DNA of 64,000 nucleotides. Origin: Argopecten irradians (lineage: Eukaryota). Shown here piece by piece: positions 9,276 to 54,350 of the stretch. The translations under genes and the position numbers were made by a program. The notes below the pieces were generated by a model. The model made no database searches and was not told the origin of the DNA. It saw only the letters and a program-made list of their open reading frames with translations. The stretch lies in contig NC_091134.1 in NCBI RefSeq assembly GCF_041381155.1, positions 61,182,902 through 61,246,901 on the forward strand. Reading direction: 5' to 3'. Each line of letters begins with the position of its first letter. Positions within the stretch are counted from its first letter, which is position 1.

Positions 9276-10935
9276 TTTAGCCCACCATCATCAGATGGTG
9301 GGCTATTTAAATCACCTTTTGTCTGTGGTCCGTCGTCCGTCCGTCCGTCCTTCTTTCCGTCCGTCCGTCCGTTAACAATTCTTGTTACCGCTATTTCTCA
9401 GAAAGTACTGAAGTGATCTTTCTCAAATTTCATATGTAGGTTCCCCTATGGCCCTAGTTGTGCATATTGCATTTTGGGACTGATCAGTTAACAAGATGGC
9501 TGCAAGGTGGCCATCTTGGATTTTGGTAGTTAAAGTTTGTTACCGCTATTTCTCAAAAAGTGCAGAAGGGATCTTTCTCAAATTTTATATGTAGGTTCCC
9601 CTAGGACCCTAGTTGTGCATTTTGCATTTTGGGACGGATCGGTCAACAAGATGGCCGACAGGTGGCCATCTTGGATTTTGGTAGTTAAAGTTTGTTACCG
9701 CTATTTCTCAAAAAGTGCAGAAGGGATCTTTCTCAAATTTTATATGTAGGTTCCCCTATGGCCCTAGTTGTGCATATTGCATTTTGGGACCGTTCGGTCA
9801 AAAATATGGCCGACAGGCGGCCATCTTGGATTTTGATAGTTGAAGTTTATTACCGCTATTTCTCAGAAAGTACTGAAGGGATCTTTCTCAAATTTCATAT
9901 GTAGGTTCCCCTGGGACCCTAGTTGTGCATATTGCATTTTGGGACCGATCGGTCAACAAGATGGCCAACAGGCGGCCATCTTTGATTTTGGTAGTTAAAG
10001 TTTGTTACCGCTATTTCTCAAAAAGTGCTGAAGGGATCTTTCTCAAATTTTATATGTAGGTTCCCCTAGGACCCTAGTTGTGCATATTGCATTTTGGGAC
10101 CGATCGGTCAACAAGATGGCCAACAGGCGGCCATCTTTGATTTTGGTAGTTAAAGTTTGTTACCGCTATTTCTCAAAAAGTGCTGAAGGGATCTTTCTCA
10201 AATTTTATATGTAGGTTCCCCTAGGACCCTAGTTGTGCATATTGCATTTTGGGACCGATCGGTCAACAAGATGGCTGACATGCGACCATCTTGGATTTTT
10301 ATAGTTAAAGTTTGTTACCGCTATTTCTCAGAAAGTACTGAAGGGATCTTTCTCAAATTTCATATGTATGTTCCCCTAGGGCCCTAGTTGTGCATATTGC
10401 ATTTTGGGACCGATCGGTCAACAAGATGGCTGCCATGCAGCTATCATGGATTTTTATAGTTAAAGTTTTTTATTGCTTTTTCTCAGAAAGTATTGAAGGG
10501 ATCTGTCTCAAATTTCATATGTAGGTACCCCTAGGTCCCTAGTTGTGCATATTGTGTTTTGGGACCGATCGGTCAACAAGATGGCCACCTGGCAGCCATC
10601 TTGGATTTTGATAGTTAAAGTTTGTTATTGCTATTTCTAAAAAAGTACTGAAGGGATCTCTCTCAAATTGTATATGCAGGTTCCCCTAGGGCCCTAGTTG
10701 TGCATATTGCATTTTGTAACTATTAGGTCAACAAGATGGCTGCACAGCCGCCATCTTGGATTTCATCGTTGAAGTTTGTTACCACTATTTCTTAGAAAGT
10801 ACTATAGCGATCTATCTCAAATTTTATATGTAGTGTGTTTGAAAAAGTTTGAAAAGCAGGGAAAAGATCCCTCTTTCCATTGTCAGACATAGATAATTCT
10901 TTGGTGGGCGCCAAGATCCCTCTGGGATCTCTTGT
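9276..10935 (-). mobile_element. HINE/DINE-1-like non-autonomous element carrying satellite B. On the + strand it reads, in order:
- TTTAG + hairpin (agcccaccatcatcagatggtgggct)
- (CCGT)n microsatellite 9319-9372
- ~155-bp satellite B x ~9.5 (9383-10835)
- palindromic tail (agatccctctgggatct)
   Basis: Direct reading. The order of hairpin, tetranucleotide microsatellite and tandem array matches the 3-prime to 5-prime layout reported for Helentron-associated HINEs. Confidence 0.6.
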
Positions 10936-11002
10936 TAAGGCAATGTGGTTTTCACTAATTACTACATCTTATTTCTCATATTTTTCATATTTTTATCAAC
11001 AG

Positions 11003-11102
11003 CAGTGTAATGAATCGCCACTTGCTTGGAGCTCTTGCTCGCGTTGGGGCAGGTGCCTTTGAGGGATTTGATAGTAAAGCAAAATCAAAATGGGAAGGCA
11101 AG
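11003..11102 (+). CDS. Gene A exon (S(S)VMNRHLLGALARVGAGAFEGFDSKAKSKWEGK). NAGNAG acceptor at 11002/11005.
   Basis: Acceptor tatcaacag(cag)| and donor ggcaag|gtaaac. The phase is consistent with the previous exon. The peptide resembles the VWA5A region ARASGGTSEFITGKDRMQSK. Confidence 0.65.
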
Positions 11103-11324
11103 GTAAACTGTATTTCTATAAAACTTGGAAGTTTGAAAGTATAAAGTCTTGTTGAGAATGAAATTTTTATTCTTTTATAAAGAAACATGATAAAGTAATA
11201 GTCCTGCTAAGCAGTCCAACAGCAATGTTAACGAAAGTTCTATAATTACATTGTAAATTTTTGCTCCAATTACACATTCTGCTATGTGATAATAGACCTA
11301 AGGAGCTTAATTCATTCACTTGTG

Positions 11325-11590
11325 TTTTTAAGCCCAGCATCATCAGATGATGAGTTAAGTCATATCTTTTTTGCCAGCTATAGTTCTCTGAAATTGTTCT
11401 CAAAAGTTCTGAAAGTATCTTTTCCAAGAGTTTTTAACAATTCAAGTTTGTTATTGCTTCTTCTCAAAATACTGTGTGTTTCTATATCCCTATTGATCTC
11501 TAGGTGTGTGTATTCCATTTTGGAATTGATTTAGAAAACAAAGCCAACTGCAGGTGGCTATCTTAGTTTTGATAATTTAAGTATTAAATG
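11325..11590 (-). mobile_element. Degenerate solo copy of the same element type, with a hairpin remnant (ttaagcccagcatcatcagatgatgag) and about one diverged satellite-B monomer
   Basis: The monomer gttattgcttcttctcaaaatactg...caactgcaggtggctatcttagttttg aligns to the satellite-B unit gttaccgctatttctcaaaaagtg...caagatggccgacaggtggccatcttggattttg. Confidence 0.5.
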
Positions 11591-11868
11591 TTTCCACAAT
11601 AACCACATCTCAAAAGATGTTGGATTATTTATGGTCTAATATTACAAGTTTGCTCCCATTGTCCTTACCTTAGTATTGTTTATACATGTACTCCATTTTA
11701 GGGTCATATGAAAACCAAAACAGGAGAGAAATGAAAAAAGTATAGCTGATATATATAGGTCCTTGATTTAACCGATATCACATTATTCAGTTATGAACCA
11801 TAAGATCCCTCAGATCTCTTGCTAAAATATATACAATACTACATGTACATCATTATATCTGTTTCCAG

Positions 11869-12036
11869 GTGAAGTCACAGATTGCTAAGGCGGGTCAGCC
11901 TGGTTTGACATCAGTTGCTGTCTCTTGGCAACAGGAAGATGGTGCCCCGCCTCCAAAACAAGCACCCAATCAAATCACAGCTCTGTTTAGTGGATCAAGG
12001 ATGGTTGTTTACGGATTTGTAAAGAACTGTTCCAGT
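11869..12036 (+). CDS. Gene A exon (VKSQIAKAGQPGLTSVAVSWQQEDGAPPPKQAPNQITALFSGSRMVVYGFVKNCSS)
   Basis: Acceptor gtttccag| and donor ccagt|gtaagt. It resembles VWA5A ..VSLSWHLPPG..IFRGQRLISYAQL. Confidence 0.7.
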
Positions 12037-12151
12037 GTAAGTTGTTTGTCTATGATTTCCTGTAAGCCTTTGGGAGTCAGAAGTTGACAACCCTTTAATA
12101 ACATGTAACTGTCATATGTTATACAGTTCTATGTAAAACAAACTGGTTACT

Positions 12152-12927
12152 CAGTATTGCCAACTCACTCGATTTCTCCGGGTTGACCCGTTTTTTTAGA
12201 CATTTTAGAATGCATAACCTGATTGACCCGTCTGGTCATCAAATAACTTGATTTTCAGCACTTGTACAAAAGTGTCAAAAAGCTCACAAAAATCACGTCA
12301 GATAAAGCCATAAGCGCAATTTTAATTACATCTCAGGGCTTTAGACTCATATCGGCCTTTGTATAATGCAGGTAGCTATGTTTGTGTTTACACAAACTTT
12401 CATAAAGGTGTGAAATTGTAGCAATTAATCTATTCAGTCATGCATCACAATGTCTATGATCGTTTTTAGCAAGAGCCAGCTAGCAAAATCAGACATGGCC
12501 ATTTAATACTCTTCAAAATCAGTAATAATCTTTTCAAAACTCTTCAAGATTTACTCACATAAATAAAACATAGTCACGTGAACGGTATCCTAGCTGTTGA
12601 AGTAGGCAGACAAGCTAATCATAATGGCTGCCATTTTGTTTAGTCAAAGACAATAGTGAAACCAGACAAAAATCCGGATTTATTTAATAAATATTTAAAA
12701 GATTTTTTAATAATTTTCTTTATTAATTATCAGATATTAATTTCATTATTACAAAAATATTCATAAATATTATTGAATAACAATATGAATATCATAAATA
12801 TATGCATATTCTAGGCTTTAAAAAAGTGTTTAAAATTTCACTCAAATGACCCTTGTTTTGACCCTTTCACCCGTTTTTTCAAGGGTGATCACCTGATTTG
12901 ACCTCATCAGAGGTTGTTGGCAATACT
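12152..12927. mobile_element. MITE candidate, ~775 bp, terminal inverted repeats cagtattgccaac...gttggcaatactg
   Basis: 13-bp perfect TIRs read directly, with subterminal gacccg/cgggtcaa-like repeats. The TSD is not clear. Confidence 0.4.
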
Positions 12928-13177
12928 GGTTTCTGACTGCATAAAATATTATTTAGAAAAGAAGTATTAATATTGTAATTAAGTGTATTTGTGATGTCTA
13001 CTGATGATAGTTTTCTGGGCATTGTGTGAACCACACCTGACATTACTCACCAGTCATATACAGGTGATGCAGTGCTTATATAAGAAATTACCCGCCAACT
13101 CTGTATAGATTGTCTGTAAACTGATTCCATCGCAACATTTAAGGTTCTATTAAGAAAATGTTTTGTTTCTTCTGCAG

Positions 13178-13258
13178 GCAACATTGACTGCTGAAATAGG
13201 CGACCAGGAAATAGCAGCTTTAGTGACCAAATCTGACCGATATGTCACCAAAGGAAAG
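13178..13258 (+). CDS. Gene A exon (ATLTAEIGDQEIAALVTKSDRYVTKGK)
   Basis: Acceptor tcttctgcag| and donor ggaaag|gtaaga. It is 81 nt and phase 0. Confidence 0.6.
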
Positions 13259-13453
13259 GTAAGACAGCTCACAAGTGCTAAACAATAACGTGACGGCATC
13301 AATACATGTGGCGTAACTGCGGCGTGCATTGTAGATGACGTCATCAATATTGACGCATAACAACATTCCTGCGATAATGGCGCGATGAAAAAGCTGAAAA
13401 CCAACTGGAATTTCATCATTTTTTCTACAAAGTATGGGAGAAAAAGAATCAAA

Positions 13454-13552
13454 CATGGGTCTGTCAAGTGGACAAGCCTCGGGTTGACCGGCCAAAATCT
13501 TTCACTCGGGTTGAGATATCCCTGTCCACTTGACAGACCCATGTAAGATCCT
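13454..13552. mobile_element. Small hairpin MITE. It has 24-bp perfect inverted repeats (catgggtctgtcaagtggacaag / cttgtccacttgacagacccatg) with a ~50-bp loop. A related half-copy lies at about 29245-29275.
   Basis: Direct reading. Confidence 0.55.
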
Positions 13553-13792
13553 AGTAGTCTCCTATGATCCAGTTTGCTAGTTTTTCTTAGATCTGTACTA
13601 GAAAAAGTAATTCTCCCATAATCTGTCAATGTCCCGTTTCCAGTTTGTAACATGTACATGTACTTGGAAAAGTAAAACAAAGGACTCACATGTGACTTTC
13701 CTTGATTTAAGCATGATATGTTGATTTTTAGTTTCAGTTTTAAGATGTTTGTACAGATTCAGGGAATTTCCACTAACATTTTGATGTTACAG

Positions 13793-13873
13793 ATTTTACA
13801 CCGTTTGGCAGCCAAAGCAATCATTCGTGATTGGGAGGATGGACTGCTCTCCCCAGATGGTCTAAATCAACAG
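13793..13873 (+). CDS. Gene A exon (ILHRLAAKAIIRDWEDGLLSPDGLNQQ)
   Basis: Acceptor ttgatgttacag| and donor caacag|gtaaga. HRLAA is a VWA5A-like motif. Confidence 0.7.
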
Positions 13874-14688
13874 GTAAGATGTCTTTTTAAGAATATTACT
13901 TTATCAACTGTGGTTTATATTTCTATACTGTTGTGTGTGGTATTTTAATACCATTGGTTTGGAAAAGTTTAGTTCAACATATGTGTATGTTGTTCAAGAC
14001 ACAAACATGTATTTCTTATAAAAGTGTTTTGAAACTCTTCTGGAATCTTCTAAGCCTTGACACTTTGAGCTGCACACAGGATTTACCTAGTAACTGGTTT
14101 ATAAGTGATTGTCCAAAAAAGGATCACATATAAACCGGGCAGCGGTCCAAAATCTTAATATATACCGGCTACAGGTCTCTTATAGACCAGTTAAGGGTAC
14201 ATTCTGTGCCTTCCATGAAATGTAACACAAAAGGAACAAAAGGGTTTACACTATATTAAACTGTGTTTTAAGGGTTAAATAGACAATCTTTGGACACCTT
14301 CTTCTAAGTTACATATAGGCCAATAGCCTTATTATTTCTTAAAATGAATGGCTTTGAAAATTAATTCATGATTACAGGAATGAAGTAAGTTTTAAGTTTT
14401 AATAAGGATTGTTAACTCGATGTCCAAGGCCTTGGCAGTTGATATAAACATGGGCCTGTAGAATGCTTGAGTTTTGGAATGTGCTAGGTTTATTGATGGA
14501 AGAAAGTCAGAATACCCGGAGAAAAACCACTGACCAGCAGTCAGTACCTAGCAATTCGAATTCACGACCCAGAGGTTGAAGGCTTGTGGTTACACCCCCC
14601 CCTAAATTTGCTCTTGTTATAGAACATCTCATTGACATTAACTTTTGTATACATAGTTTGACCGTCTGAATTAATGTTTTTATTTCAG

Positions 14689-14790
14689 AGAATGAAGATG
14701 GACCTAAAAGGCTATGTTATAAAGCTTAGCAAAGAGTTCTGTATAGTGACTTCACTAACTAGCTTCATCGCAGTGGAAAAACGTGAAAAG
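14689..14790 (+). CDS. Gene A exon (RMKMDLKGYVIKLSKEFCIVTSLTSFIAVEKREK)
   Basis: Acceptor tttatttcag| and donor gaaaag|gtctga. TSFIAVE compares with SSFTAFIAI in VWA5A and ITIH. Confidence 0.7.
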
Positions 14791-15209
14791 GTCTGAGAGA
14801 AAACTTAATTTCAAAAATGTAACTTTGAAGTTAAGAGTTTGTATTTTGTTGTACTTTTGGCCGTTCTGCTCTTCCTATCAATATATATATATAGAAACAA
14901 CCACATTATGGATATTTCTAAATAAATGTCACAGTAGGTTATTTTGTACTATGCCCCCTATGAAACAACTCTGTTGTTTCTATTGCATTATTATAGCTTT
15001 AGTTTTAAAACAATCTTGAATACTTTAGTACAAAAAGTCTGAAATTTTCTGATTATAATAATAGAAAGACATTTATAGAAATGAGATAATATTTTCTTCT
15101 AACAAGGTATTTTGTTATATCTTTACATATGAGCTGTTTATAAAAGGCTGACAAAATCATTGTGTGTTGACTTGTAATAGTGGTGATGTACTTGTCTGAT
15201 TAATAATAG

Positions 15210-15335
15210 GATGAAGAAATGACATGTGCTCCGGATATCTATGAACTCTTGGATGAAGTGCGAGAAAATGTTTGTTCATTCCTTCGCCTCGACATCACCC
15301 CAAATGATTTTGAAGCAGCTCTAGATTCTGATGAT
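15210..15335 (+). CDS. Gene A exon (DEEMTCAPDIYELLDEVRENVCSFLRLDITPNDFEAALDSDD)
   Basis: Acceptor ttaataatag| and donor gatgat|gtaagt. It is 126 nt and phase 0. There is no homology support beyond frame and splice sites. Confidence 0.5.
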
Positions 15336-15417
15336 GTAAGTGTGTTTTTAGATATAATCAAGCCTTCAGATTACTAAAAGGTTATTAGTAAGGCTTGTAA
15401 GACAAATTTACTTCAGA

Positions 15418-16382
15418 TAGGGCTGAAACGATTAGTAATTTTTGTATTCAATTATTTGGTCTCATGTAATCGATTACTAATCGATTAATCGTTTGAATTG
15501 AAGGCAACTATATTGTTTCACTACTGACTACTGAAAACGTCCGCCATGTTTTGTTATCAACTAATAATAACACCTACCGTATAATATGACAGAGGACATG
15601 CCTTATATAATATAAGCCTACCAATATCCCAATGATATTTAAATCTCTGCAACAAATAAGAATAGATTTATTGACAAAACAAACGTATTTTATCCCAAAT
15701 AAGCTCTGAATTCCGTTCCTGTATTGTCTTCCGTAACATCGTTTAAATCAAGTCTGCTAACCCGCTGTTTTGACGTGACCTTCACACGTACGACTAATCA
15801 ACCAAATCTGGATCGCCACGGAGCAACATGACCAAATTTTCGTCAATGAACTTTTTTATTTCCGTGATCAAAAAAACAAAATAAATCAACAACTCTTATA
15901 TTCAATTAGAATATGAACAAAAACATTCTTTTTATATGATAAACACATGCAATAGTAAAATCTAAATGTTCAAGATTACTGCTCCTTCCGCTCCCGAGCG
16001 TCCCGGCGGCGATTAGGCCTCCGTGACGTAACAACATGGAGTCGATCGCTAGTGAAAATTGGCGAACAGCGTGTTGCAAGCTTTCTCATGACATCCACTT
16101 TTTCATTGATTAATGACTTTAACTTCCACAGAGACGTAATTTAACAAGTATTTCTCACATCATATATGCTTTGTTGAGTTCAAAACATGTACATAAAGAG
16201 ATGAAACTCCAGTCGGAATGGCTTACTCAGAAATCCATGATCTGTCAACGTGTTTAGTCAGCTTACAATGCACTGGCTATGCATGTTACGATTAACGATT
16301 AATAAAATCTTTAATCGATTATCAGCAATTAGCTTCATTAATCTAATCGCCTCCGATTATTCGACTAATCGTTTCAGCCCTA
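15418..16382. mobile_element. Non-autonomous hAT-superfamily DNA transposon (~965 bp). It has 18-bp perfect TIRs (TAGGGCTGAAACGATTAG) and an 8-bp target-site duplication ACTTCAGA (15410-15417 and 16383-16390).
   Basis: TIR and TSD read directly. An 8-bp TSD plus a TAGGG.. terminus is the hAT hallmark. There is no transposase ORF inside. Confidence 0.75.
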
Positions 16383-17194
16383 ACTTCAGACCATAGGCAC
16401 ATTTTTAGTAGGGGGGAGGAGGGCAGTATTCTTGAATCAACGATCCCCACCTGTCCGTAGAAAAAAATGTCCAGACACTTCCACCTTATTTATTGAATCA
16501 ATTTCAGTGAAACTTGGCAGCAACGCTGGCAGGGCCATGTGTAGATGTGTATGCAGGTTTTATCTTATAAAAAATTTGGTTGCCAAGGTAAACAGGTCAC
16601 TGTACACAGGTTTTATAATGTAGCCAATGACTAAGCTTGTTGTTAAATTTTGGATAATTTTCTTCAAACTTGGTGAATTGTTGTAACACATGGATATCTA
16701 TAATTTGACACACCACATGATTCCATAGCAGTTTTTATGGAAAAAAGATTGTACATAGATAATCTCATTTACTCTCTGATATCTTAAGCATGCACTATGA
16801 TTACCAGGTACCAGGTGAGCGATTTTATTGTGTTCATGAAACTTAACCCTGTTATCTGACGTAAATGACCATACAATGTAGTTTGTTTCTGCCGAATAAT
16901 TATGTAATGAGAGCAATATCTGACATTTAAATCAATTTGTAAGTTTTAATTGTAATATTAAATACTTCACAATTACTTAGTCGGTATATCCAAAGATGTA
17001 ATGTAAATAAAAAACAAAAAGAAAAAAAAACCTCTGAGCCTTGTGTTTCCGTAAGGTTGTCAGTTATACACATATTTCATAACTTAATATTAATGTCATA
17101 CAATTGAGACACAAAACCTTAATTAACCACTTTGTTGGAACTGTCCAAAAGTATATACTTTTCATAGACATACAGAATTCTGATTTATTCTCAG

Positions 17195-17233
17195 GAATCC
17201 ACCAGTTATTCGACAGATGATACCGGTGAACAT
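17195..17233 (+). CDS. Gene A micro-exon (ESTSYSTDDTGEH)
   Basis: Acceptor tgatttattctcag| and donor gaacat|gtaagt. It is 39 nt and phase 0. Support is weak because it is short. Confidence 0.4.
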
Positions 17234-17274
17234 GTAAGTAATACATCAATTATTGTATGGATGTACCTTAAGGT

Positions 17275-18512
17275 GGCTAAGATGTGATATTGTTTATGTA
17301 GACAGAAGATCAAGTAAATGAGGTAGAGGTGTGATATTGTTTATGTAGACAGAAGATCAAGTAAATGAGGTAGAGGTGTGATATTATTTATGTAGACAGA
17401 AGATCAGGTAAATGAGGAAGAGATGTGATATTGTTTATGTAGACAGAAGATCAGGTAAATGAGGCTGAGATGTGATATTGTTTATGTAGACAGAAGGTCA
17501 GGTAAATGAGGTAGAGATGTGATATTGTTTATGTAGACAGAAGATCAGGTAAATGGGGTAGAGATGTGATATTGTTTATGTAGACAGAAGATCAAGTAAA
17601 TGAGGTAGAGATGTGATATTGTTTATGTAGACAGAAGATCAGGTAAATGAGGTAGAGATGTGATATTGTTTATGTAGACAGAAGATCAGGTAAATGAGGT
17701 AGAGATGTGATATTATTTATGTAGACAGAAGATCAGGTTAATGAGGTAGAGATGTGATATTGTTTATGTAGACAGAAGTTTAGTAAAAATGGGTAGTGAT
17801 ATGATATTGTTTATGTAGACAGAAGATCAGGTAAATGAGGTAGAGATGTGATATTGTTTATGTAGACAGAAGATCAGGTTAATGAGGTAGAGATGTGATA
17901 TTGTTTATGTAGACAGAAGATCAGGTAAATGAGGCTGAGATGTGATATTGTTTATGTAGACAGAAGATCAGGTAAATGAGGAAGAGATGTGATATTGTTT
18001 ATGTAGACAGAAGATCAGGTAAATGAGGTAGAGATGTGATATTGTTTATGTAGACAGAAGACCAGGTTAATGAGGTAGAGATGTGATATTGTTTATGTAG
18101 ACAGAAGACCAGGTTAATGAGGTAGAGATGTGATATTGTTTATGTAGACAGAAGACCAGGTTAATGAGGTAGAGATGTGATATTGTTTATGTAGACATAA
18201 GATCAGGTAAATGAGTTAGAGATGTGATATTGTTTATGTAGACAGAAGATCAGGTAAATGAGGTAGATATGTGATATTGTTTATGTAGACAGAAGATCAG
18301 GTAAATGAGGTAGAGATGTGATATTGTTTATGTAGACAGAAGATCAAGTAAATGAGGTAGAGATGTGATATTGTTTATGTAGACAGAAGATCAGGTAAAT
18401 GAGGTAGAGATGTGATATTGTTTATGTAGACAGAAGATCAAGTAAATGAGGTAGAGATGTGATATTGTTTATGTAGACAGAAGATCAGGAAATGAGGTAG
18501 AGATGTGATATT
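17275..18512. repeat. 37-bp minisatellite (unit ~tgtgatattgtttatgtagacagaagatcaggtaaatgaggtagaga) x ~33, left block
   Basis: Direct reading. It sits in a gene A intron. Confidence 0.9.
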
Positions 18513-42800: not shown

Positions 42801-45800
42801 ATTGTTAGGTATTGTTATACTGTCCTTGGTATCATAGTCATTGTTAGGTATTGTTATACTGTCCTTGGTATATAGTCATTGTTAGGTATTGTTATACTGT
42901 CCTTGGTATATAGTCATTGTTAGGTATTGTTATACTGTCCTTGGTATATAGTCATTGTTAGGTATTGTTATACTGTCCTTGGTATATAGTCATTGTTAGG
43001 TATTGTTATACTGTCCTTGGTATATAGTCATTGTTAGGTATTGTTATACTGTCCTTGGTACATAGTCATTGTTAGGTATTGTTATACTGTCCTTGGTACA
43101 TAGTCATTGTTAGGTATTGTTATACTGTCCTTGGTACATAGTCATTGTTAGGTATTGTTATACTGTCCTTGGTACATAGTCATTGTAGGTAGGTACTTCC
43201 TTGGTATAGCATTGTTAGGTATTGTTATACTGTCCTTGGTACATAGTCATTGTTAGGTATTGTTATACTGTCCTTGGTACATAGTCATTGTTAGGTATTG
43301 TTATACTGTCCTTGGTATATAGTCATTGTTAGGTATTGTTATATACTGTCCTTGGTATATAGTCATTGTTAGGTATTGTTATACTGTCCTTGGTATATAG
43401 TCATTGTTAGGTATTGTTATACTGTCCCTTAGGTATTGGTCCTTGGTATATAGTCATTGTTAGGTATTGTTATACTGTCCTTGGTATATAGTCATTGTTA
43501 GGTATTGTTTATACTGTCCTTGGTACATAGTCATTGTTAGGTATTGTTATACTATCCTTGGTATATAGTCATTGTTAGGTATTGTTATACTGTCCTTGGT
43601 ATATAGTCATTGTTAGGTATTGTTATACTATCCTTGGTATATAGTCATTGTTAGGTATTGTTATACTGTCCTTGGTATATAGTCATTGTTAGGTATTGTT
43701 ATACTGTCCTTGGTACATAGTCATTGTTAGGTATTGTTATACTGTCCTTGGTATATAGTCATTGTTAGGTATTGTTATACTGTCCTTGGTATATAGTCAT
43801 TGTTAGGTATTGTTATACTGTCCTTGGTACATAGTCATTGTTAGGTATTGTTATACTGTCCTTGGTACATAGTCATTGTTAGGTATTGTTATACTGTCCT
43901 TGGTATATAGTCATTGTTAGGTATTGTTATACTATCCTTGGTATATAGTCATTGTTAGGTATTGTTATACTGTCCTTGGTACATAGTCATTGTTAGATAT
44001 TGTTATACTGTCCTTGGTACATAGTCATTGTTAGGTATTGTTATACTGTCCTTGGTATATAGTCATTGTTAGGTATTGTTATACTGTCCTTGGTACATAG
44101 TCATTGTTAGGTATTGTTATACTGTCCTTGGTACATAGTCATTGTTAGGTATTGTTATACTGTCCTTGGTATATAGTCATTGTTAGGTATTGTTATACTA
44201 TCCTTGGTATATAGTCCATGTTAGGTATTGTTATACTGTCCTTGGTATATAGTCATTGTTAGGTATTGTTATACTGTCCTTGGTATATAGTCATTGTTAG
44301 GTATTGTTATACTGTCCTTGGTATATAGTCATTGTTAGGTATTGTTATACTGTCCTTGGTATATAGTCATTGTTAGGTATTGTTATACTGTCCTTGGTAT
44401 ATAGTCATTGTTAGGTATTGTTATACTATCCTTGGTATATAGTCATTGTTAGGTATTGTTATACTGTCCTTGGTACATAGTCATTGCTAGGTATTGTTAT
44501 ACTGTCCTTGGTATATAGTCATTGTTAGGTATTGTTATACTGTCCTTGGTATATAGTCATTGTTAGGTATTGTTATACTGTCCTTGGTATATAGTCATTG
44601 TTAGGTATTGTTATACTATCCTTGGTACATAGTCATTGTTAGGTATTGTTATACTATCCTTGGTACATAGTCATTGTTAGGTATTGTTATACTGTCCTTG
44701 GTATATAGTCATTGTTAGGTATTGTTATACTGTCCTTGGTATATAGTCATTGTTAGGTATTGTTATACTGTCCTTGGTATATAGTCATTGTTAGGTATTG
44801 TTATACTGTCCTTGGTATATAGTCATTGTTAGGTATTGTTATACTGTCCTTGGTATATAGTCATTGTTAGGTATTGTTATACTGTCCTTGGTATATATAG
44901 TCATTGTTAGGTATTGTTATACTGTCCTTGGTATATAGTCATTGTTAGGTATTGTTATACTGTCCTTGGTACATAGTCATTGTTAGGTATTGTTATACTG
45001 TCCTTGGTACATAGTCATTGTTAGGTATTGTTATACTATCCTTGGTATATAGTATTGTACTATCCTTGGTATATAGTCATTGTTAGGTATTGTTATACTG
45101 TCCTTGGTATATAGTCATTGTTAGGTATTGTTATACTGTCCTTGGTATATAGTCATTGTTAGGTATTGTTATACTATCCTTGGTATATAGTCATTGTTAG
45201 GTATTGTTATACTGTCCTTGGTACATAGTCATTGTTAGGTATTGTTATACTATCCTTGGTAACATAGTCATTGTTAGGTATTGTTTATACTATCCTTGGT
45301 ATATAGTCATTGTTAGGTATTGTTATACTGTCCTTGGTATATAGTCATTGCTAGGTATTGTTATACTGTCCTTGGTATATAGTCATTGTTAGGTATTGTT
45401 ATACTGTCCTTGGTATATAGTCATTGTTAGGTATTGTTATACTGTCCTTGGTATATAGTCATTGTTAGGTATTGTTATACTGTCCTTGGTACATAGTCAT
45501 TGTTAGGTATTGTTATACTGTCCTTGGTATATAGTCATTGTTAGGTATTGTTATACTGTCCTTGGTACTTATAGTCATTGTTAGGTATTGTTATACTGTC
45601 CTTGGTATATAGTCATTGTTAGGTATTGTTATACTGTCCTTGGTACATAGTCATTGTTAGGTATTGTTATACTGTCCTTGGTATATAGTCATTGTTAGGT
45701 ATTGTTATACTGTCCTTGGTACATAGTCATTGTTAGGTATTGTTATACTATCCTTGGTATATAGTCATTGTTAGGTATTGTTATACTGTCCTTGGTATAT

Positions 45801-46878
45801 AGTCATTGTTAGGTATTGCTAGGTATTGTTATACTGTCCTTGGTACATAGTCATTGTTAGGTATTGTTATACTATCCTTGGTATATAGTCATTGTTAGGT
45901 ATTGTTATACTGTCCTTGGTATATAGTCATTGTTAGGTATTGTTATACTGTCCTTGGTATATAGTCATTGTTAGGTATTGTTATACTATCCTTGGTATAT
46001 AGTCATTGTTAGGTATTGTTATAGGTATTGTTATACTGTCCTTGGTATATAGTCATTGTTAGGTATTGTTATACTGTCCTTGGTATATAGTCATTGTTAG
46101 GTATTGTTATACTGTCCTTGGTACATAGTCATTGTTAGGTATTGTTATACTGTCCTTGGTATATAGTCATTGTTAGGTATTGTTATACTGTCCTTGGTAT
46201 ATAGTCATTGTTAGGTATTGTTATACTGTCCTTGGTATATAGTCATTGTTAGGTATTGTTATACTATCCTTGGTATATAGTCATTGTTAGGTATTGTTAT
46301 ACTGTCCTTGGTATATAGTCATTGTTAGGTATTGTTATACTGTCCTTGGTATATAGTCATTGTTAGGTATTGTTATACTGTCCTTGGTACATAGTCATTG
46401 TTAGGTATTGTTATACTGTCCTTGGTATATAGTCATTGTTAGGTATTGTTATACTGTCCTTGGTATATAGTCATTGTTAGGTATTGTTATACTGTCCTTG
46501 GTATATAGTCATTGTTAGGTATTGTTATACTGTCCTTGGTATATAGTCATTGTTAGGTATTGTTATACTGTCCTTGGTATATAGTCATTGTTAGGTATTG
46601 TTATACTGTCCTTGGTATATAGTCATTGTTAGGTATTGTTATACTGTCCTTGGTATATAGTCATTGTTAGGTATTGTTATACTATCCTTGGTATATAGTC
46701 ATTGTTAGGTATTGTTATACTGTCCTTGGTATATAGTCATTGTTAGTGTTAGGTATTGTTATACTGTCCTTGGTATATAGTCATTGTTAGGTATTGTTAT
46801 ACTGTCCTTGGTATATAGTCATTGTTAGGTATTGTTATACTGTCCTTGGTATATAGTCATTGTTAGGTATTGTTATAT
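39866..46878. repeat. 36-bp minisatellite (tatagtcattgttaggtattgttatactgtccttggta), ~7 kb and ~195 units, in a gene A intron
   Basis: Direct reading. Units carry occasional t/c (tatag/catag) and g/a variants. Confidence 0.95.
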
Positions 46879-47384
46879 CTTTACTTTACATTCCTTATAC
46901 TATTCTATAGTTAAAGTCTTTTAAAGTACATTTTTTTCAGATGTTTGTGCACGTGAAATGTTGACCAGTCAACATCGAAATGCTGACTGCTTACTTCATG
47001 TTGATGTTACAATTTATATTTGGCACGTATTTGTCTAAATGATAAAAGATATAACAAAACATTTGTAGAGTTTTTGGTCAACATGTTATATGGTGATTTG
47101 TTTTACTGAACTAACCCTAACCCTAGTTCAACGTAACACATGTTGACCTCAAACTCCGTCAACGTAAATGCAGTCAAGTGTCTGTCAAGAGAGACCAAAT
47201 AGGATCAAATGAATTGTTTTTCAAAACAAAATTTTCTTCAATGCTTGGAATTTCAAAACAAAATTTTCTTCAATGCTTGGAAATAATTATTATACTGTAG
47301 AACCCTTTATCGTATTTATAATAGATTGAAAAATCTTATGGTGGAAGCATGATACCTGAACATGTCTTTATGATATACAAATAG

Positions 47385-47498
47385 GAGCAGTCTGTTTCGT
47401 GGAGGAAATGTGAGTCACCAGACTTCTTCAGAAAGATGGATCAAGAAAATGACTTACTTGAAGCTGATCAGAAGAAGCCAACAGAACATGCAAAGAAG
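47385..47498 (+). CDS. Gene A exon (EQSVSWRKCESPDFFRKMDQENDLLEADQKKPTEHAKK)
   Basis: Acceptor tacaaatag| and donor aagaag|gttggt. It is 114 nt and phase 0. Confidence 0.5.
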
Positions 47499-48094
47499 GT
47501 TGGTATATAAAGCAGGTACAATGAAGTAGCAGATCCAACATATGTTTTCATCAGGTAATGTCGAAAGAAATGTCTACAGATACTTCTAAGTTATAGGTAA
47601 TAATTAGTCCCAACAATTCTAAGTTAGCGTATTACAGAGAGATCTGTCCGTACAGGTAGGTATTGATTGTTATGTCAAGTTTTTCAGAGAAAAGACATAA
47701 TTTTCACTCACAAACGTCTTTAATGTTTACATTACTACTGCACAGTAGAGCTTGATGTTACTACTAAACCCAATGTATGATAATTTACAATTTTTACATT
47801 TGTTTTGGCTCAGCTGGCAAAGTTTTACCTTCATCAGAGGTCACGAAAAGATTGGATTCATGACAGTATGAGAATTTACAAAGGATATTCTTAAAATTAA
47901 TCAATAAGAAAATTAAAAGTGATTAAAAGTGTTCTATTTATCTTTGTTTATTCGGGTTATCGATTGAATGATTTGTTACTGTTTAGTTGGTTTTCCTTTC
48001 AACAACAGCAACAGTCCAGAAACCCATTAGTCCAGAAACCCATTATTTCTCATCAAATATTTTCCTCTATGCATACGTGTCGGGTTTTTTTCAT

Positions 48095-48122
48095 CCTTTA
48101 TATATATATATATATATATATT
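48095..48122. repeat. (TA)n microsatellite
   Basis: Direct reading. Confidence 0.9.
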
Positions 48123-48641
48123 AATTTCATTTCTTATAACTGGAATAACTGTAGTGTAGTTAGAAAATTAGCACCTTTGTAAATAGTTATGTTTTACAAG
48201 AAATACGAGCACTTGGCTTAAAATTTTTAGCCTAAAATATCTGGCGCGAACAGTGCTAAGATGTATTTACCGTTAAAATATGTATTAACTGGTAATGACG
48301 TTACATTCAATACTTTCCTCCATAGACAGATATTCTGTAATACAAAATGAATGCAAAGACGGAATAAAAATTATAGGCATACATATATATACTGTAAACA
48401 TGGATATTTTAGCGAGTGCTTAATTTCGCGATTTGCATGCATAAACTCCCCCTCTCCTAAATTTCCATGTTTATAGTAGATATAAAATTTGATATGTATG
48501 ATAGGATTGAGGATAAGTGTACTAGAATAGACTTTGATTATACTATAACCTTTTGAGCTGATGGTTTCTCTGATACATTTAATAGATAATGCAGGATTTT
48601 GTTCTACAACATGATGTGTTTGTTCTTTTGATTTATTCAAG

Positions 48642-48768
48642 ATACCAGTTGGTAGGAAGTGTCATGGAATGAGAGTAACAGAGAGCATTGAAAGAAATAC
48701 GGAGGAATTAAGCTTCCAAAGGGCTGGAGCCTATCGTACAAGGTCTTCTGGTGGATCTTGCTGTATGG
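48642..48768 (+). CDS. Gene A candidate exon (IPVGRKCHGMRVTESIERNTEELSFQRAGAYRTRSSGGSCCM-)
   Basis: Acceptor tttattcaag| and donor tgtatgg|gtatat. It ends with 1 extra nt, which the next confirmed exon needs. There is no homology support. Confidence 0.3.
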
Positions 48769-49602
48769 GTATATGCTATATTTGATATTTCACACACTTG
48801 TGACCTTGTTGGGAAGATTACTTATCAGATTTGCTTATCTGAATGACCTTGAGCTTTATTTCAAGTTCTATAATCTAATTTTGAAGATTGTTTAAACACA
48901 ATTTAAGCATTCGAGAGCTTTAGATTTCTGAATTAACCAAAAGGCGAGGAATTAAGACCCATTGAATGTTTTCTTTACTCTAGTGCTTCAGTCTGTATTG
49001 ACTTTGGCGTTGGTTGAAAATATATACATTTCATCTCAAATTATTTCTGTGTAAAGAGATCATATTCTATCATCCCTACAGCTCTAGAAAGGAAAGTAAA
49101 TTATTGAACTTTTAAATTGAACTTTGTTAATTGTTTCGCAGAATTAATAGTCAGTGTTTGAAGAGACACTGGTGTGACAACATACTTTTGTTTCTTGAAA
49201 AAAAAACCCACTGATATTTAGAAGGACTAATCTGTTGTTTGGGCAGCACAGTCCCAATACCGCTCCATAATAGAGGACCTTTGCTGTTTCTTCCTGGTAG
49301 GCCCTAATACAACACTTGATATTTTTCCAATTTCAACAAAATCTAGGATTAAGCAACAGGCAATGCCTATGTAAGTTCTCTTTCTCTCACCATAATAACC
49401 ACCTGTAAAACCACACAGTCAATCACAGTGCCCCGTTATTCAATTCTTTTGATGTGCATCAAAGGTCCAAACTTCCTTTTTATCTTTGCTCACACGGTTT
49501 TCAGTTTTCCTACAAAAATATCCCATAGGTGGATATAATGACAGTGATAGTAACCACTGGAATATCAAGGTGAATAATAGAACGCAAACGGTTTCTTGGT
49601 AG

Positions 49603-49776
49603 GCCCTAGAACGGCAACATATGAGAACACACGCAATGGAAGAGCTCTACATGTAGATGGACGATGGGTTCAGGATAAAGAAAGACCAGAAGAACTGCAT
49701 GGATTTTTGTCTAAAGTCAAAGATAAATCTGGAGGCAAAGGCCGAAGCTTAAATGATCTGACTGACAGAGAGCCTG
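49603..49776 (+). CDS. Gene A possible additional exon (..PRTATYENTRNGRALHVDGRWVQDKERPEELHGFLSKVKDKSGGKGRSLNDLTDREP-)
   Basis: Acceptor tttcttggtag| and strong donor cctg|gtgagt. It is phase-neutral (1 nt in, 1 nt out), so frame cannot confirm or exclude it. Confidence 0.2.
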
Positions 49777-50654
49777 GTGAGTTAGGCTGAGACATAATCT
49801 CTGATACTACAAAGATGGTAGCTGTTTTCTTCATTTCTTCTCCTGGAACTTTTCAAAAGACAGTCAGACTTCAATTCATGATTTTTTCTTTCAGTGTAGA
49901 AGGCTTATTTTGTAGTGATATTCATACCAGGCAAGGGAGATGATTATGTCACACCTTGCAGTGGTTTGCTGACACTTTCTTGAAAGAGTGATCACATCAA
50001 TGTTATGATGTATCCTGATTAACATGTCACATGATTGCGAACATGTCACATGATTGCCAACATGTCACATGATTGCGAACCTATTGAGAAGGTGAAATAT
50101 TGTACACCAGGCCATTAATTTTATGGTTGACACAGAGGCTGTTATTATAATTTTTAGATTATATCCAACTGATAATATATTGTCCTGTTTAATAATCCAG
50201 AAACTTTGGTAGACTTTATGGATATCCAGTGTTAAGATGATAACTTTTAGGCTGCCTCGCTGCTGCTGATTATCAGCCAGTGAATGGAAATGGACTGGTC
50301 AAAATTACTCTGCAAGATCTGCTGATGTACTTAGCTGTAATCCCTAGACAGCCAGCTGACATATATCACATGTTACAATCCATTTATGTATATATTTATT
50401 GCTTCTCAAGTGATAGCTCTTATTTTGACAGTCAAATGTTGGCGCCTTCATGTCTTTATTGTTTTGTATAACCCCCTGCCTACGATCAAGCTATGTGGAG
50501 TATACTGTCTCATCTGTGTTTTGAATTGAACACTGACAATCGATGGATTATGAAAACATTGTGTACAACACATACAATGTTTGGCATATTTTCTTTTAAT
50601 GATATTCCCAAAACTCCTTCCCATTTACTAAACTAGTACTTGTATTAGTACATT

Positions 50655-50760
50655 TACTAGTTTTTAGCTCGCCTATTCGAAGAATAGGGGGAGCTAATGT
50701 TGTCACCCCGGCGTCGGCGTCGGTGTCAGCGTTGGCGTCCCATTTCACGTTAAAGTTTTT
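50655..50760 (-). mobile_element. Hairpin-head remnant (tttttagctcgcctattcgaagaatagggggagct) followed by a (CGTCGG)-like microsatellite remnant
   Basis: Same head family as the 30919 element. No satellite array follows. Confidence 0.35.
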
Positions 50761-51404
50761 GAGCAAGTTTCTGTTTCGTCAATTGTTTAAGCTTAAGTCA
50801 TAATAAATGTTTATGATTTTATTTTCCTAATGTGTATGGATGCTGAACGTGATAATACAACCAATTTGGGGCCCTTTAAGGGGTTTTTGAGTCTGTTAAT
50901 TTGTCATATTTCCATGTTTAAATAGTAAATACTTGAACATCAACTTCTTCTGAATAGACGAGCTTTGCTGTTCTCCAACAGCTCTTGTCTTTTTCCTAAC
51001 TTACTCTGCTGTCACATTTTTCTCTCAAATCTTTTATAAAACTAGGTATGCTTATCATCTGTTGGTGTGTCTCCATATTTCCTGCATTATGAGAGGTTTT
51101 GCTATATGTTGTGAATAGAAAATATCATGGAAAACTCCAGTCATATGACACACTTAGGAACCAATTCAAATCTTGAATGTTTTACACGAAGAGTAGAGAA
51201 CATGTGCAGGTCTTTTAATAAAATATAATTGGAAATGCTGCTATTGTATTTAAGTAAAAACAAGATATTATTTTCATATAGACAAGTTCTAAATTCTTAT
51301 TTAGGATCACGTTTTAATAACATCATGTAAAATTGGTGATGCAATACACTGACATAAGCAATTGCATAGAAATGCTCTTTGTATACATACATTATAGAGT
51401 GCCA

Positions 51405-51680
51405 TGTCAGTATACCGGGAGTTGGATTACTGGTTCGCCCGGGCCGTTGTCAGTATAATGTGACGGAGTGGGGTGTGTTGCTTTGAGTCTTTGGTGGAAT
51501 GTTTCAAATATATAGCACTATAAAAAGGGCAACAGTTCCACTATACAAGGAGGCACAATGCGAATATACCACAGTCTTCCAAAGCACGCACAGCGCACTT
51601 CATACACACTGCACCCCGCATGCATGGGAAGCCATCCTTACATGACCATGGCTGTTAATAGGACATTAATTAACAGAGCA
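51405..51680 (+). mobile_element. Second SINE-like copy. It shares the conserved central domain (ccatccttacatgaccatggctgttaataggacattaa) with the 38777 SINE but has a different 5-prime part.
   Basis: Domain identity read directly. A B-box-like ggttcgccc lies at about 51440. Confidence 0.4.
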
Positions 51681-52004
51681 CCATGTACTGACTGGTAACC
51701 ACAAAATTAAATTTCATGTACTCCAAGGTCAAGGTCATTAGAGGTCATCCTGGTCACATCACAGGACCAGCGGGGTTAATCCCTTAATGAGCAAGTCATG
51801 GTTTACTCCATAGGAATGGCAAACAAAGCTTATAAACGGTCATGATTATTTTGTTTAATTGCATCTTTCCATAAAATTTCAGACATGTTGACTTTTAATA
51901 GAGAACAATCTATATTCCATGCGCATATCTGTTGTGCTTAAAGTGGCTTGTCGGAGTTGAAGAAATGAAGCCTATCTTCAATTGTTTTGTTTGTTATGTT
52001 TTAG

Positions 52005-52105
52005 ATCTTGCCGATGTCGGATCAAAAATGCCAGTCATTGCTAAGGCAGCAAAGAAAAACCTCAGTAAAAAAGAATTTGACATCCTGAAAAAAATTCAAA
52101 ATAAG
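52005..52105 (+). CDS. Gene A exon (-D LADVGSKMPVIAKAAKKNLSKKEFDILKKIQNK)
   Basis: Acceptor gttatgttttag| and donor aataag|gtacat. Confidence 0.6.
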
Positions 52106-52427
52106 GTACATGTATATCCAAACGTAAAAAGTAAATGGATACTTTAACATCTTTAAAGGATATGAAAATAAAGTGCAATGTAAATATTCATCTTCATAAT
52201 AAACTATTGGATTGGATTTAAGGTTAACTATTGATAGTATTATCAATATTTTGAACAACCCTATTACTATTTGATAAATAAAGCAATTATAACCGAATCT
52301 CTATTATTATAAATATCACATTATGAAAACGATGAAATATTAGACTTCATAAAAGTCGAGGTATCAGCTGTATATGAAATTGAAATTTCACACTCATATT
52401 GTTCATAATAAACTGATTGTATTACAG

Positions 52428-52524
52428 TTAGGGGGTTGGACGAGGGATGAACTGGAGAAGGACCTGTATATTGATTTATCAGCCTGTATTGAGGTCCTAA
52501 ACACTGCAGGACTGAAGTCACTTG
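52428..52524 (+). CDS. Gene A exon (LGGWTRDELEKDLYIDLSACIEVLNTAGLKSL-)
   Basis: Acceptor gtattacag| and donor cacttg|gtaggt. It resembles the VWA5A C-terminal NGSWDLNEDLAKILG. Confidence 0.65.
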
Positions 52525-52857
52525 GTAGGTGGTACTGCATCGTAACTTCATCTCTATGGGAGTTTACTCAACAGGATTTTTCTCCAGTTGCATTTAATTT
52601 GATAAAAGTCGGTAAAAAGAAATGTAATTACGTTGTTTATTTTACTTTGTGGACTTCCTTTTCATTTTTGGACAGTCTTGAGCTAAAAACTTTGGAAACA
52701 GGAGAAAAAAATATCATACACAATTAGAGCCGAAACCTTGTTTTCTGGTATGGTTCGATCACACATAATAAATTTATATTTAAGATGCTGAGTGAAGGGT
52801 ATTCGATCATCGGTAAATGAACAGAAATCCTACTATACTGCATGAATATTTTTTTAG

Positions 52858-53153
52858 GTGTGAAGGTCGCTATGGAAATGGAGAATGTTTTAGTGACAGC
52901 ATTTGTTGTCATGTGGATACTCAAGACACTGGCACCAGAGTTATTCCCCTTGGATACCACCACCAGGAATTGGTCCCAAACTGCCGTGGAAATAGCAGCA
53001 GCCGTACTGGAGATATATGACCATGATCGGTCGTTGTTGGACAAGGCTGTTCAGTACTGTGACCAGTTAGAGAGGGCACACCCAGGTGTCGCCTATATAT
53101 TGGAACTGGGGTCTAACTGGTTCAATGTGGCTTCAAAAATATTAGGGTTATGA
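52858..53153 (+). CDS. Gene A terminal coding exon (-G VKVAMEMENVLVTAFVVMWILKTLAPELFPLDTTTRNWSQTAVEIAAAVLEIYDHDRSLLDKAVQYCDQLERAHPGVAYILELGSNWFNVASKILGL*)
   Basis: Acceptor tatttttttag| and stop TGA at 53151-53153. It resembles the VWA5A C-terminus ..SSGWATILAVIWLHS..ELLERKAVAWMRAH. Confidence 0.65.
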
Positions 53154-53394
53154 TTTCTATAACTGATGCAAAATTGAAAAGACTGAGTAACTAGAGTATC
53201 ATTTGAATATGAAGAATTTTGAAATGAGATTAATGTTCTTTGATTACAAGACATTTGAAATTAGGCAAAGGCATTTCAAATGAACTATATACTTTTCAAA
53301 TGAAAATTGTTAGGTAGTTGATATGGTTGTATGTGAAAAGGTTTATTTTTTTATGAAAACTTATGGTGTGCTGATTATGTAAAAGACATATTTT

Positions 53395-54350
53395 AGGTCA
53401 TCTGACCCGAAGGGTCATTATGACCTATTGTCATCATGCACCGTCTGTCGTCGTGCGCCGTGCGTAAACTTTTCATTTAAATGACTTCTTCTCTATAACC
53501 GAAAAGCCAAGGGTACTCATATTTGGCCGGTAGCATGCTGGGATGAAGGGCTACCAAGTTTGTTAAAATGAATGGCCTTGACCTTCATTCAAGGTCACAG
53601 GGGTCAAATAGGTGAAAATCTTTAAATGACTTCTTCTTAATAACCAAACAGCCTAGGGACTTGATATTGGGCCTGTGGCATGCTTGGATGAAGGGCTACC
53701 AAGTTTTTTCAAATGAATAACATTGACCTTCATTCAAGGTCACAGGGGTCAAATAGGTGAACATCTTTAAACGATTCTTCTTAATAACAAAGAGGCCTAG
53801 GGACCTGATATTAGGCCTGTTAGATGCTGGGATGAAGGGCTACAAAGTTTGTTCAAATGAATGACCTTGACCTCCATTCAAGGTCACAGGGGTCATAAAG
53901 GCTAAAATCTTTAAACAACTTCTTTTTAATAATAAAGAGGCCTAGGGACCTGATATTGCGACTTTGGCATGCTTGGATAAAGGGCTAATGAGTTTGTTCA
54001 AATGAATGACCTTGATCTTCATTCAAGGTCACAGGGGTCAAATAGGCTAAAATTGTTAAAAGACTTCTTAATAACCAAAATGCCTAGAGACCTGATATTG
54101 GGCCTGTGACATGTTGGGATGAAGCTCTACAAAGTTTGTTCAAATGAATGATCTTGACTTTAGGGATCAAATAGGCTAAAATATTTAAATGGCTTCTTTT
54201 TAATAACCAAGAGGCAAAGGGGCCTCTAATGTGCTTAGGCATGATATAAATTCTTATTCACTCTCCTATTTGTTAAGTATGAACCATGCATGATTACCAG
54301 ATAGCAGGTGAGCGATTCGGGCCCATTGGGCCCTTGTTACATTTACAATA
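53395..54350 (-). mobile_element. HINE-like element carrying satellite A, immediately 3-prime of the gene A stop. On the + strand it reads, in order:
- ttttag + hairpin (ggtcatctgacccgaagggtcattatgacc)
- decayed (CGTC)n 53437-53468
- ~145-bp satellite A x ~5 (53470-54200)
- tail ..accagatagcaggtgagcgattcgggcccattgggcccttgttac
   Basis: Direct reading. Confidence 0.6.

Follow-up and report, generated by a model that had tools for sequence, protein, structure and literature searches.

Satellite-carrying elements, probably non-autonomous Helentrons, inserted along a VWA gene of Argopecten irradians

The stretch of Argopecten irradians DNA analysed here (contig NC_091134.1 of assembly GCF_041381155.1, positions 61,182,902 to 61,246,901; hereafter the window) comprises 64,000 nt of AT-rich eukaryotic DNA (GC 31-43%) that is rich in tandem repeats. 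A VIT/VWA gene of the VWA5A/PARP4-like kind runs through it on the + strand (8554..53153). Between 9.3 and 54.3 kb lie repeated insertions of a composite element that carries arrays of satellite monomers and is probably a non-autonomous transposon of the Helentron type. Exons of the host gene were placed by homology at 8554-8769, 11001-11105 and 11866-12039, and further + strand frames of the gene include 36430-37941 and 52821-53153. The concatenated + strand open frames match Pfam VWA_3. In protein searches the best match of the VWA exons was an unnamed protein at 61% identity, with 50% identity to a sponge PARP4-like protein, and the C-terminal exon returned no match. The exon at 36430-37941 (+) contains a coding 81-bp tandem repeat of ~6.8 copies with the proline-rich unit PPPPPPMLGKDFTSSGPPRPPRAPSA.

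Read on the + strand, the insertions share one order of modules: a T-run, AG, a hairpin, a (CCGT/CGTC)n microsatellite, an array of 145-157 bp monomers and a tail. An ordered architecture of this kind had been described in an initial annotation made from the letters alone, and it was found at 9279, 11330, 18519, 25290/26013, 30924, 33233/33323 and 53395, with 5'-truncated remains at 22213. Heads at 26927, 27977 and 30137 came to light in addition through BLAST and through profile searches with heads and tails, as did two tails (16755-16824 and 26805-26844) and C-like monomers (28928-29133). The number of insertions is at least 9 and up to 12: nine are well supported (A1, A2, B1, C2, D1, D2, C1, D3 and D4), and twelve are reached when the weak fragments are counted.

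Intact heads consist of 2-5 T, then AG, then an arm of 8-12 nt that pairs with a nearby complementary arm, and the insertion sites are T-rich. We refer to the first arm as the 5' subterminal inverted repeat (subTIR) and to its partner as the IR (for inverted repeat). The 5' subTIR starts 0-2 nt past the T-run in A1, B1, C1, D3 and D4, as it does in two contigs from another scallop described below, and reads AGCCCACC(ATC), (A)GGTCATCTGAC or AGCTCACCTGG. Beyond the hairpin comes a short conserved stretch, TAT.GTCATCATG, and then the CCGT/CGTC-type microsatellite, which leads through a conserved junction, CGT[TAC]AAC[AT]TTTC, into the array. Four array families are present (A, 155 bp x 9.4; B, 146 bp x 10.6; C, 157 bp x 12; D, 145 bp x 3-5); both the microsatellite-to-array junction and the monomer register are conserved in all of them. 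In the tail, a stretch that is reverse-complementary to the first arm precedes a palindrome of 5-7 bp, and CTTGTT follows. That stretch, the 3' subTIR, is found upstream of the palindrome at a distance of 25-30 nt from the 3' end and is complementary to the 5' subTIR at 7/8 positions in A1, 11/11 in B1, 10/11 in C1 and 10/11 in D3. The tail does hold the complement of the head stem in these four copies, as had been proposed; D2 shows it partially and D4 is an exception. In intact tails the palindrome, which folds into a 6-7 bp stem, sits 6-7 nt from the end, as GGCCC-NNN-GGGCC or, in A1, as AGATCCC-TCT-GGGATCT, and the tail closes with ..TTGTT (CTTGTT in A1, B1 and C1). Because the stems are short, the z-scores of the tail palindromes are individually weak (-0.9 to -3.4). 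No long open reading frames (ORFs) were found in the elements except frames through the repeats. ARAGORN detected no tRNA and Rfam returned nothing at gathering score in the window, which argues against tRNA-, 7SL- or 5S-derived short interspersed elements (SINEs) with a head that stems from an RNA gene.

That these modules move together is seen most directly at B1 (18517..20370, +). Its head, with the 5' subTIR GGTCATCTGAC at 18520-18530 and the IR GTCAGGATGACC, is followed by microsatellite to ~18600 and by satellite B (10.6 x 146 bp, 18612-20187, +). B1 interrupts a 47-bp satellite (17280-22212), lying in the T-run of one of its units, and the satellite resumes exactly in register: ..GATATTGTTT(TT) is the last sequence on the left, and GTAGACA.. 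the first on the right. Among the 47-bp units, 55/60 carry GTTTAT, and the variant GTTTTT, a perfect empty site, occurs 172 and 219 bp downstream of B1. Since the 47-bp satellite continues in register on both sides, B1 moved as one unit: its head, array and tail, a 1.85-kb block (18517-20370), entered the T-run as one piece, with edges placed within 2 nt. The built-in empty site proves the joint movement of head, array and tail and makes the locus a teaching case. For B1 it also contradicts one outcome that the initial annotation had named as fatal to its own proposal, namely that the arrays pre-existed and the heads arrived independently.

B1 has two tails, both on the + strand. The inner one (20200-20240) has the palindrome and CTTGTT without a subTIR, and the outer one (20322-20370) is complete, with GTCAGATGACC at 20335-20345, GGCCC-TTT-GGGCC at 20351-20363 and CTTGTT at 20365-20370. 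It was the outer tail that formed the mobile end, because the register of the 47-bp satellite places the boundary there. This hints that the 3' subTIR, and not the palindrome alone, is needed for termination.

A second line of evidence for one-unit origin is the family-specific co-variation of 5' subTIR, IR and 3' subTIR. The corresponding arms are AGCCCACC, GGTGGGCT and GGTGGGCG (tail) in family A, AGGTCATC, GATGACCT and GATGACC in families B and D, and AGCTCACC, GGTGAGCT and GGTGAGCG in family C. Folded as DNA, the heads form hairpins of -8 to -14 kcal/mol, with shuffle-based z-scores of -3.6 to -8.9, and the decayed heads at 11326 and 26925 fold poorly. When seven heads were aligned, 94.5% of hairpin cells were paired and 4 pairs showed compensatory changes on both sides; the hairpin score was reached by 0/500 shuffles, and slid controls were 19-45% paired.

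The same unit is found at other loci. Within the window the flanks of the copies are mutually unrelated. Further afield, a pattern scan identified two metagenome contigs (NSIT01000731.1 and NSIT01000495.1) in which a T-run followed by a AGGTCATCTGACCCGAAGGGTCAGGATGACC head, a microsatellite and B-like arrays occur in this order. Both have the boundary of T-run and AGGTCATC, and they are 82-88% identical to B1 and D4 within the element and unrelated outside it. The assembly was made from king scallop (Pecten maximus) gill (PMC5772249), and the two contigs are therefore almost certainly host DNA carrying B-type repeats. The contigs are deposited in an Endozoicomonas-like 'metagenome', and their arrays alternate two monomer variants. 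The remaining one of three metagenome matches, a GC-rich bacterial sequence, was put down to chance. Two scans of prokaryotic genomes for exact patterns, and a scan of viral contigs, gave no matches, and a search for the subTIR strings in published papers returned primer coincidences only.

The remaining copies differ mainly in how well they are preserved, and all of them lie on the + strand. A1 (9274..10936) is intact and occupies the intron between the exons at 8554-8769 and 11001-11105. It comprises a T-run (9274-9278), the 5' subTIR AGCCCACC (9279-9286), the IR GGTGGGCT (9297-9304), (CCGT)n at 9328-9372, 9.4 x 155 bp of satellite A at 9382-10833, the 3' subTIR GGTGGGCG (10903-10910), the palindrome AGATCCC-TCT-GGGATCT (10914-10930) and CTTGTT (10931-10936). 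A2 (11325..11640), in the next intron, is an old, decayed copy: a T-run with the head AAGCCCAGCATCATCAGATGATGAG is left, 84% identical to the A head over 32 nt (BLAST), the microsatellite is gone, about one degenerate A-like monomer persists and the tail is unrecognisable. The copies had been said to fill the introns of the VWA gene. This holds for A1 and A2; D4, the copy at 53395, is situated beyond the last coding exon that could be detected (ORF end 53153).

C1 (30922..33047) is the best example of its family, with the 5' subTIR AGCTCACCTGG at 30924-30934, the IR CCGGTGAGCT, (CGTC/CCGT)n at 30969-31053, 12 x 157 bp of satellite C at 31060-32948, the 3' subTIR CCAGGTGAGCG at 33012-33022, the palindrome GGCCC-TCT-GGGCC and CTTGTT to 33047. 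Its relative C2 (22213..22595) is 5'-truncated and retains ~1.8 C monomers and a complete C-type tail, 95% identical to that of C1 over 99 nt; it adjoins the end of the 47-bp satellite. The latter has ~66 units, is G-rich on the + strand and meets C2 at 22213 in a shared GGTAAAT.GAGGT motif.

Satellite D is carried by four copies. The pair at 25290/26014, previously entered as one copy, consists of two elements 8 nt apart. D1 (25290..26002) has lost its head hairpin, retaining the post-hairpin left flank, a microsatellite remnant and ~4 x 145-bp satellite D, and has a B-type tail with the 3' subTIR GTCAGATGACC at 25967-25977 that ends in CTCGTT at 26002. D2 (26010..26844), which begins 8 nt past D1, has a C-type head (TTGCTCACCTG, 26013-26022), decayed D-like monomers at 26075-26470, 3 x 22-bp repeat and its own tail, CAGGTGACTGTTAAGGCCCATGGACC..TTTTGTT, at 26809-26844. 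D3 (33178..35374) has a duplicated head, a microsatellite remnant, a first D monomer that is broken at 33431 and other D monomers at 35103-35294, followed by the 3' subTIR GTCAGATGACT (35337-35347), GGCCC-ATT-GGGCC and TTGTT to 35374. The break is filled by a nested insert of 1672 bp (33431..35102, no strand assigned), which has perfect 21-nt terminal inverted repeats (TIRs), TCTCCATTTGCCCACTTTTTA, at 33431-33451 and 35082-35102 and is not one of the elements described here; a target duplication was looked for around it without a clear instance, and it has no long ORF. Because this insert splits the first D monomer of D3, the 'headless' fragment at 35120, formerly counted as a separate copy, is in fact the 3' half of the element at 33229. 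The last copy, D4 (53393..54338), is chimeric, with a B-type head (GGTCATCTGAC, 53396-53406), 4.7 x 145-bp satellite D at 53476-54158 and a C-like tail consisting of CAGGTGAGCG (54305-54314), GGGCCC-ATT-GGGCCC and TTGTT to 54338. Its head and tail subTIRs mismatch, and its type of tail recurs as an isolated fragment (16755..16824, ..ATGATTACCAGGTACCAGGTGAGCGATT) that is 75% identical to the D4 tail and stops before the palindrome.

Two further heads are degenerate. One is a solo head at 26925..26965 (TTTTT followed by AGCTCACCTCTTGAAGAGGAGG..GGTGCTTAT), with a weak profile match (E 0.2). The other, AGCTCACCTGATCGGAAGGGCCAG at 27977 (E 0.003), precedes decayed C-like monomers at 28928-29133, and the two are possibly parts of one old element (27977..29175), for which no tail was found.

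We assign these copies, with a probability of roughly 0.88, to the non-autonomous Helentron-type rolling-circle transposons known as HINEs, specifically to satellite-carrying HINEs of the bivalve pearl/CvA/Cg_HINE kind. Features that define HINEs are present: 5' and 3' subTIRs, the IR hairpin, the 3' palindrome, a microsatellite with an array in fixed orientation, and a T-rich/TT insertion site. In HINEs the 5' subTIR measures about 11-15 nt and is set back from the 5' end by a few nt at most, and the palindrome measures 5-10 bp. The structural lists given for HINEs and DINE-1 (PMC4067079) and for the oyster Cg_HINE elements (PMC7492417) are matched in the same way, so the likeness to these elements that had been drawn in the initial annotation was well founded. 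The + strand is the element's own strand because the hairpin plus microsatellite module is the published 5' end; in the Repbase Helitron-N consensi, it is at position 1 that the left flanks of oyster Cg_HINE align.

By analogy with published systems, an autonomous Helentron elsewhere in the genome would encode a Rep/helicase/endonuclease that recognises the subTIR and hairpin signals. This protein would nick the flanking T-run and displace a single strand, starting with the 5' hairpin and ending with the 3' subTIR and palindrome, and the displaced strand would be pasted into another TT site without target duplication. The array would be carried passively, its length changing in situ by unequal exchange or slippage, and bypass of an end or recombination between neighbouring copies might create new combinations of head, array and tail, such as D4 or the D monomers behind B- and C-type heads. 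D4 itself is probably a recombinant or an end-bypass product. The later history of the copies, comprising decay, nesting, truncation and local duplication, is directly visible in the window.

Several points weigh against this assignment. No autonomous Helentron ORF (Rep/helicase/AP-endonuclease) was found within the 64-kb window, and the trans-mobilising partner and the rolling-circle mechanism are both taken from the literature. The B1 empty site fits an element that carries its own TT and makes no duplication as well as it fits a TT target-site duplication, an ambiguity already stated for HINEs by Thomas et al. 2014 (PMC4067079). In D4 the head and tail subTIRs are non-complementary, which leaves two readings: D4 is a recombinant that can no longer move, or a match between the subTIRs is not a strict requirement. 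Finally, the 3' subTIR is 25-30 nt from the end, as against 38-60 nt in mite HINEs, a spacing that does fit the oyster layout.

Of the competing explanations, the one that survives best, though we consider it improbable, is that the copies are MITEs (miniature inverted-repeat transposable elements) moved by cut-and-paste through a DDE transposase with a 2-bp TT/AA target-site duplication, which is the older pearl/DTC84 classification. The MITE label is used in older literature, inverted repeats are indeed present with TT at both ends, and a TT duplication would formally fit the B1 site. However, these repeats are placed subterminally and asymmetrically, 0-2 nt from the 5' end versus 25-30 nt from the 3' end, and neither of the outermost sequences, AG.. 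and ..CTTGTT, is an inverted copy of the other. Moreover, in mite, Culex and Drosophila, elements of this architecture have been linked to Helentron partners with 84-99.9% identity (PMC4067079).

The initial annotation had read the copies on the minus strand, where they end in CTAAAA, and taken this for a CTRR terminus. On that reading they would be canonical Helitrons in which the large hairpin is the 3' hairpin and CTAA(AA) the CTRR motif, and every intact copy does end on the minus strand with a hairpin plus CTAA, which is formally CTRR. We regard this as very improbable. The A-run that follows CT merely mirrors the T-rich flank or target on the complementary strand, and its length is not constant from copy to copy; the minus strand has AACAAGAG rather than TC at its 5' end, and neither strand begins with TC. 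The hairpin abuts the end (0-1 nt), whereas in canonical Helitrons it lies ~10 nt upstream, the nucleotide past the minus-strand end is A rather than T, and at B1 the insertion lies in a T/A-run, not at a step from A to T. In addition, the published orientation of the homologous oyster elements has the hairpin and microsatellite at position 1. The same wrong choice of strand lay behind the statement that all copies are antisense to the VWA gene: VWA homologues align in + frames, successively along the three exons, and the elements are also on the + strand, so the copies are in sense orientation.

It is scarcely credible that the arrays are pre-existing intronic satellites with heads and tails as unrelated small insertions, or that the copies stem from segmental duplication: two local tandem duplications do exist, and the 47-bp and 38-bp satellites are without such flanks (HINE termini were looked for around both and none were found), but B1 is one block inside another satellite in perfect register, heads and tails co-vary by family, the junction and monomer register are conserved, the flanks of the copies are unrelated, and the Pecten contigs repeat the head-microsatellite-array order at other loci.

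Under the HINE assignment, the closest published counterparts are the eleven Cg_HINE elements of the Pacific oyster (Repbase Helitron-N*_CGi) described by Vojvoda Zeljko et al. 2020 (PMC7492417). These have a subTIR, an IR and a GTCY/GTCC microsatellite on the left, ~140-180 bp monomers in one orientation, and a right flank with subTIR and palindrome, and they are inserted at TT inside genes. The window elements resemble them in module order, in their T-rich/TT sites, in the scatter of short arrays through genes, in the pairing of related flanks with different monomers and in the occurrence of two arrays in one element. They differ in host and in monomer length (145-157 bp versus mostly 160-180 bp); identity to Cg170 is only ~60%, and the window subTIR sequences were not found in the oyster literature texts. 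The window copies share one orientation, whereas oyster elements occur in both orientations genome-wide (PMC7492417).

Elements of this class were earlier named pearl/CvA, MgE or DTC84 and treated as MITE-like (PMC3879986). Pearl/CvA of Crassostrea virginica (Gaffney et al. 2003, as relayed by PMC3879986 and PMC5874043) was, in these secondary accounts, first called MITE-like with an AA target duplication; CvA-like cores of ~156 bp are reported from Adamussium, Chlamys, Pecten (including Pecten maximus) and Mizuhopecten. The likeness of pearl/CvA to the window elements is one of published description. DTC84 of Donax trunculus (PMC3879986) consists, like the window elements, of flank, core repeats, (ACGG)n and flank, and its monomers have a conserved palindrome near the junction, as do window satellites A and B (CAAGATGGCCGnC..GCCATCTTG), but it has <=5 repeats in a fixed order of variants where the window arrays reach 9-12 monomers. 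DINE-1 and the HINEs of Drosophila, Culex and mite (PMC4067079) likewise have subTIRs, a 3' stem-loop and optional microsatellite or tandem repeats, and in DINE-1 an extra IR pairs with the 5' subTIR. They also share T-run targets with a variable number of T, clustered insertions and an association with duplication breakpoints. In contrast to the window elements, their autonomous partners have been shown; there is no sequence similarity between the two groups, and the 3' subTIR is nearer the end in the window. The class is thus already known and well published, the catalogue status of the local families aside. The window offers a well-preserved local example of a phenomenon published for bivalves, the spread of satellite-like arrays through genes by non-autonomous Helentrons, and the annotation is corrected with respect to element strand, sense orientation, one split element and the relatedness of the monomers.

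This last point rests on comparison of the monomer sequences. The palindrome CAAGATGGCCGnC...GCCATCTTG is a box common to A and B monomers (z = 9 versus shuffles in local alignment), and D and B monomers align with the oyster Cg170/CL1 monomer in forward orientation only (z = 8.5 / 6.7 and 5.3), the C monomer doing so weakly (z = 3.7). All four start in the same register past the microsatellite, with a CT.CT..TCA box. Judged by these likenesses, satellites A-D are diverged members of an old monomer lineage and not four unrelated captures. The earlier picture of one element type carrying four unrelated satellites is also at odds with the published family rule, an identical subTIR of 11 nt or more, which gives three families (AGCCCACC, GGTCATCTGAC and AGCTCACCTGG). 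The D monomer was found with B-type as well as with C-type heads, a shuffling of modules such as has been published for Cg_HINE groups; in Cg_HINE group 2, different arrays between similar flanks have already been described (PMC7492417). The arrays also change in place: that of C1 has 316- and 473-bp higher-order periods with non-adjacent monomers 95-96% identical, and the older D arrays (75-87% identity) vary in monomer number between copies.

Two aspects of the locus are mildly unusual, and only these: the uniform orientation of the copies and a pair of local duplications. In BLAST and nhmmer searches all matches to heads, monomers and tails fell on the + strand, the few minus matches being halves of the palindromic hairpins. 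The single orientation noted at the outset was thereby upheld. For 9 insertions, or 12 with the weak fragments, all in + orientation, a two-sided binomial test gives p 0.004 to 0.0005, a value that is post hoc because the window was chosen for its pattern. Strand supply of T-runs does not account for the bias, T-run targets being only 1.09-fold more frequent on the + strand and T-runs only 1.06-1.11x as frequent there as A-runs, and a comparison of simple poly(A)- and splice-like motifs revealed no clear asymmetry that would favour the avoided strand.

The first duplication, at C1 (29389..30957, +), has a unit of ~785 bp in two copies that are ~99.9% identical; it could be an assembly artefact. 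The unit contains 745 bp of 5' host flank, the C1 head hairpin and TAT, so that its distal breakpoint lies 3 nt past the hairpin, and it leaves a solo head at 30137-30168. The second, at D3 (33178-33267 / 33268-33357, +), has a 90-bp unit made of 53 bp of flank, the head hairpin and TATAT. Two independent duplications in two families thus consist of host flank plus 5' hairpin and break 3-4 nt past the hairpin, which suggests a hairpin-associated hotspot of breakage or template switching behind both. In Drosophila, clustered insertions and HINE-like elements at duplication breakpoints have already been noted (PMC4067079). It is conceivable, though we think it unlikely, that integration or retention of Helentrons and HINEs is strand-specific, following the direction of transcription or of the replication fork, and that the 5' hairpin is a recurrent site of nicking or fork collapse. 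If this were true and general, such patterns would be footprints, within the genome, of Helentron action and of the strand used.

Other repeats and a second gene share the window with these elements. Within the host gene, a 7-kb array of a 38-bp unit with a 114-bp higher-order period occupies 39852-46877 (GC skew +0.29, AT skew -0.37). Downstream, a second + strand gene (61251-63895) has He_PIG, EGF and F5/8 type C exons, with no HINE copies in or near it. Upstream, 173-bp repeats occur in opposite orientations 5.5 kb apart (806-1150 and 6673-7187). Next to the right-hand set come (GGTAGTATTG)6 and then 60/118-bp repeats ending in ..CTTGTT (7136-7199, 7213-7550), and between the sets runs a minus-strand frame of 270 aa (3599-4408) that had no Pfam match. 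The 173-bp repeat region may be a further composite transposon that bears repeats, or else a foldback structure.

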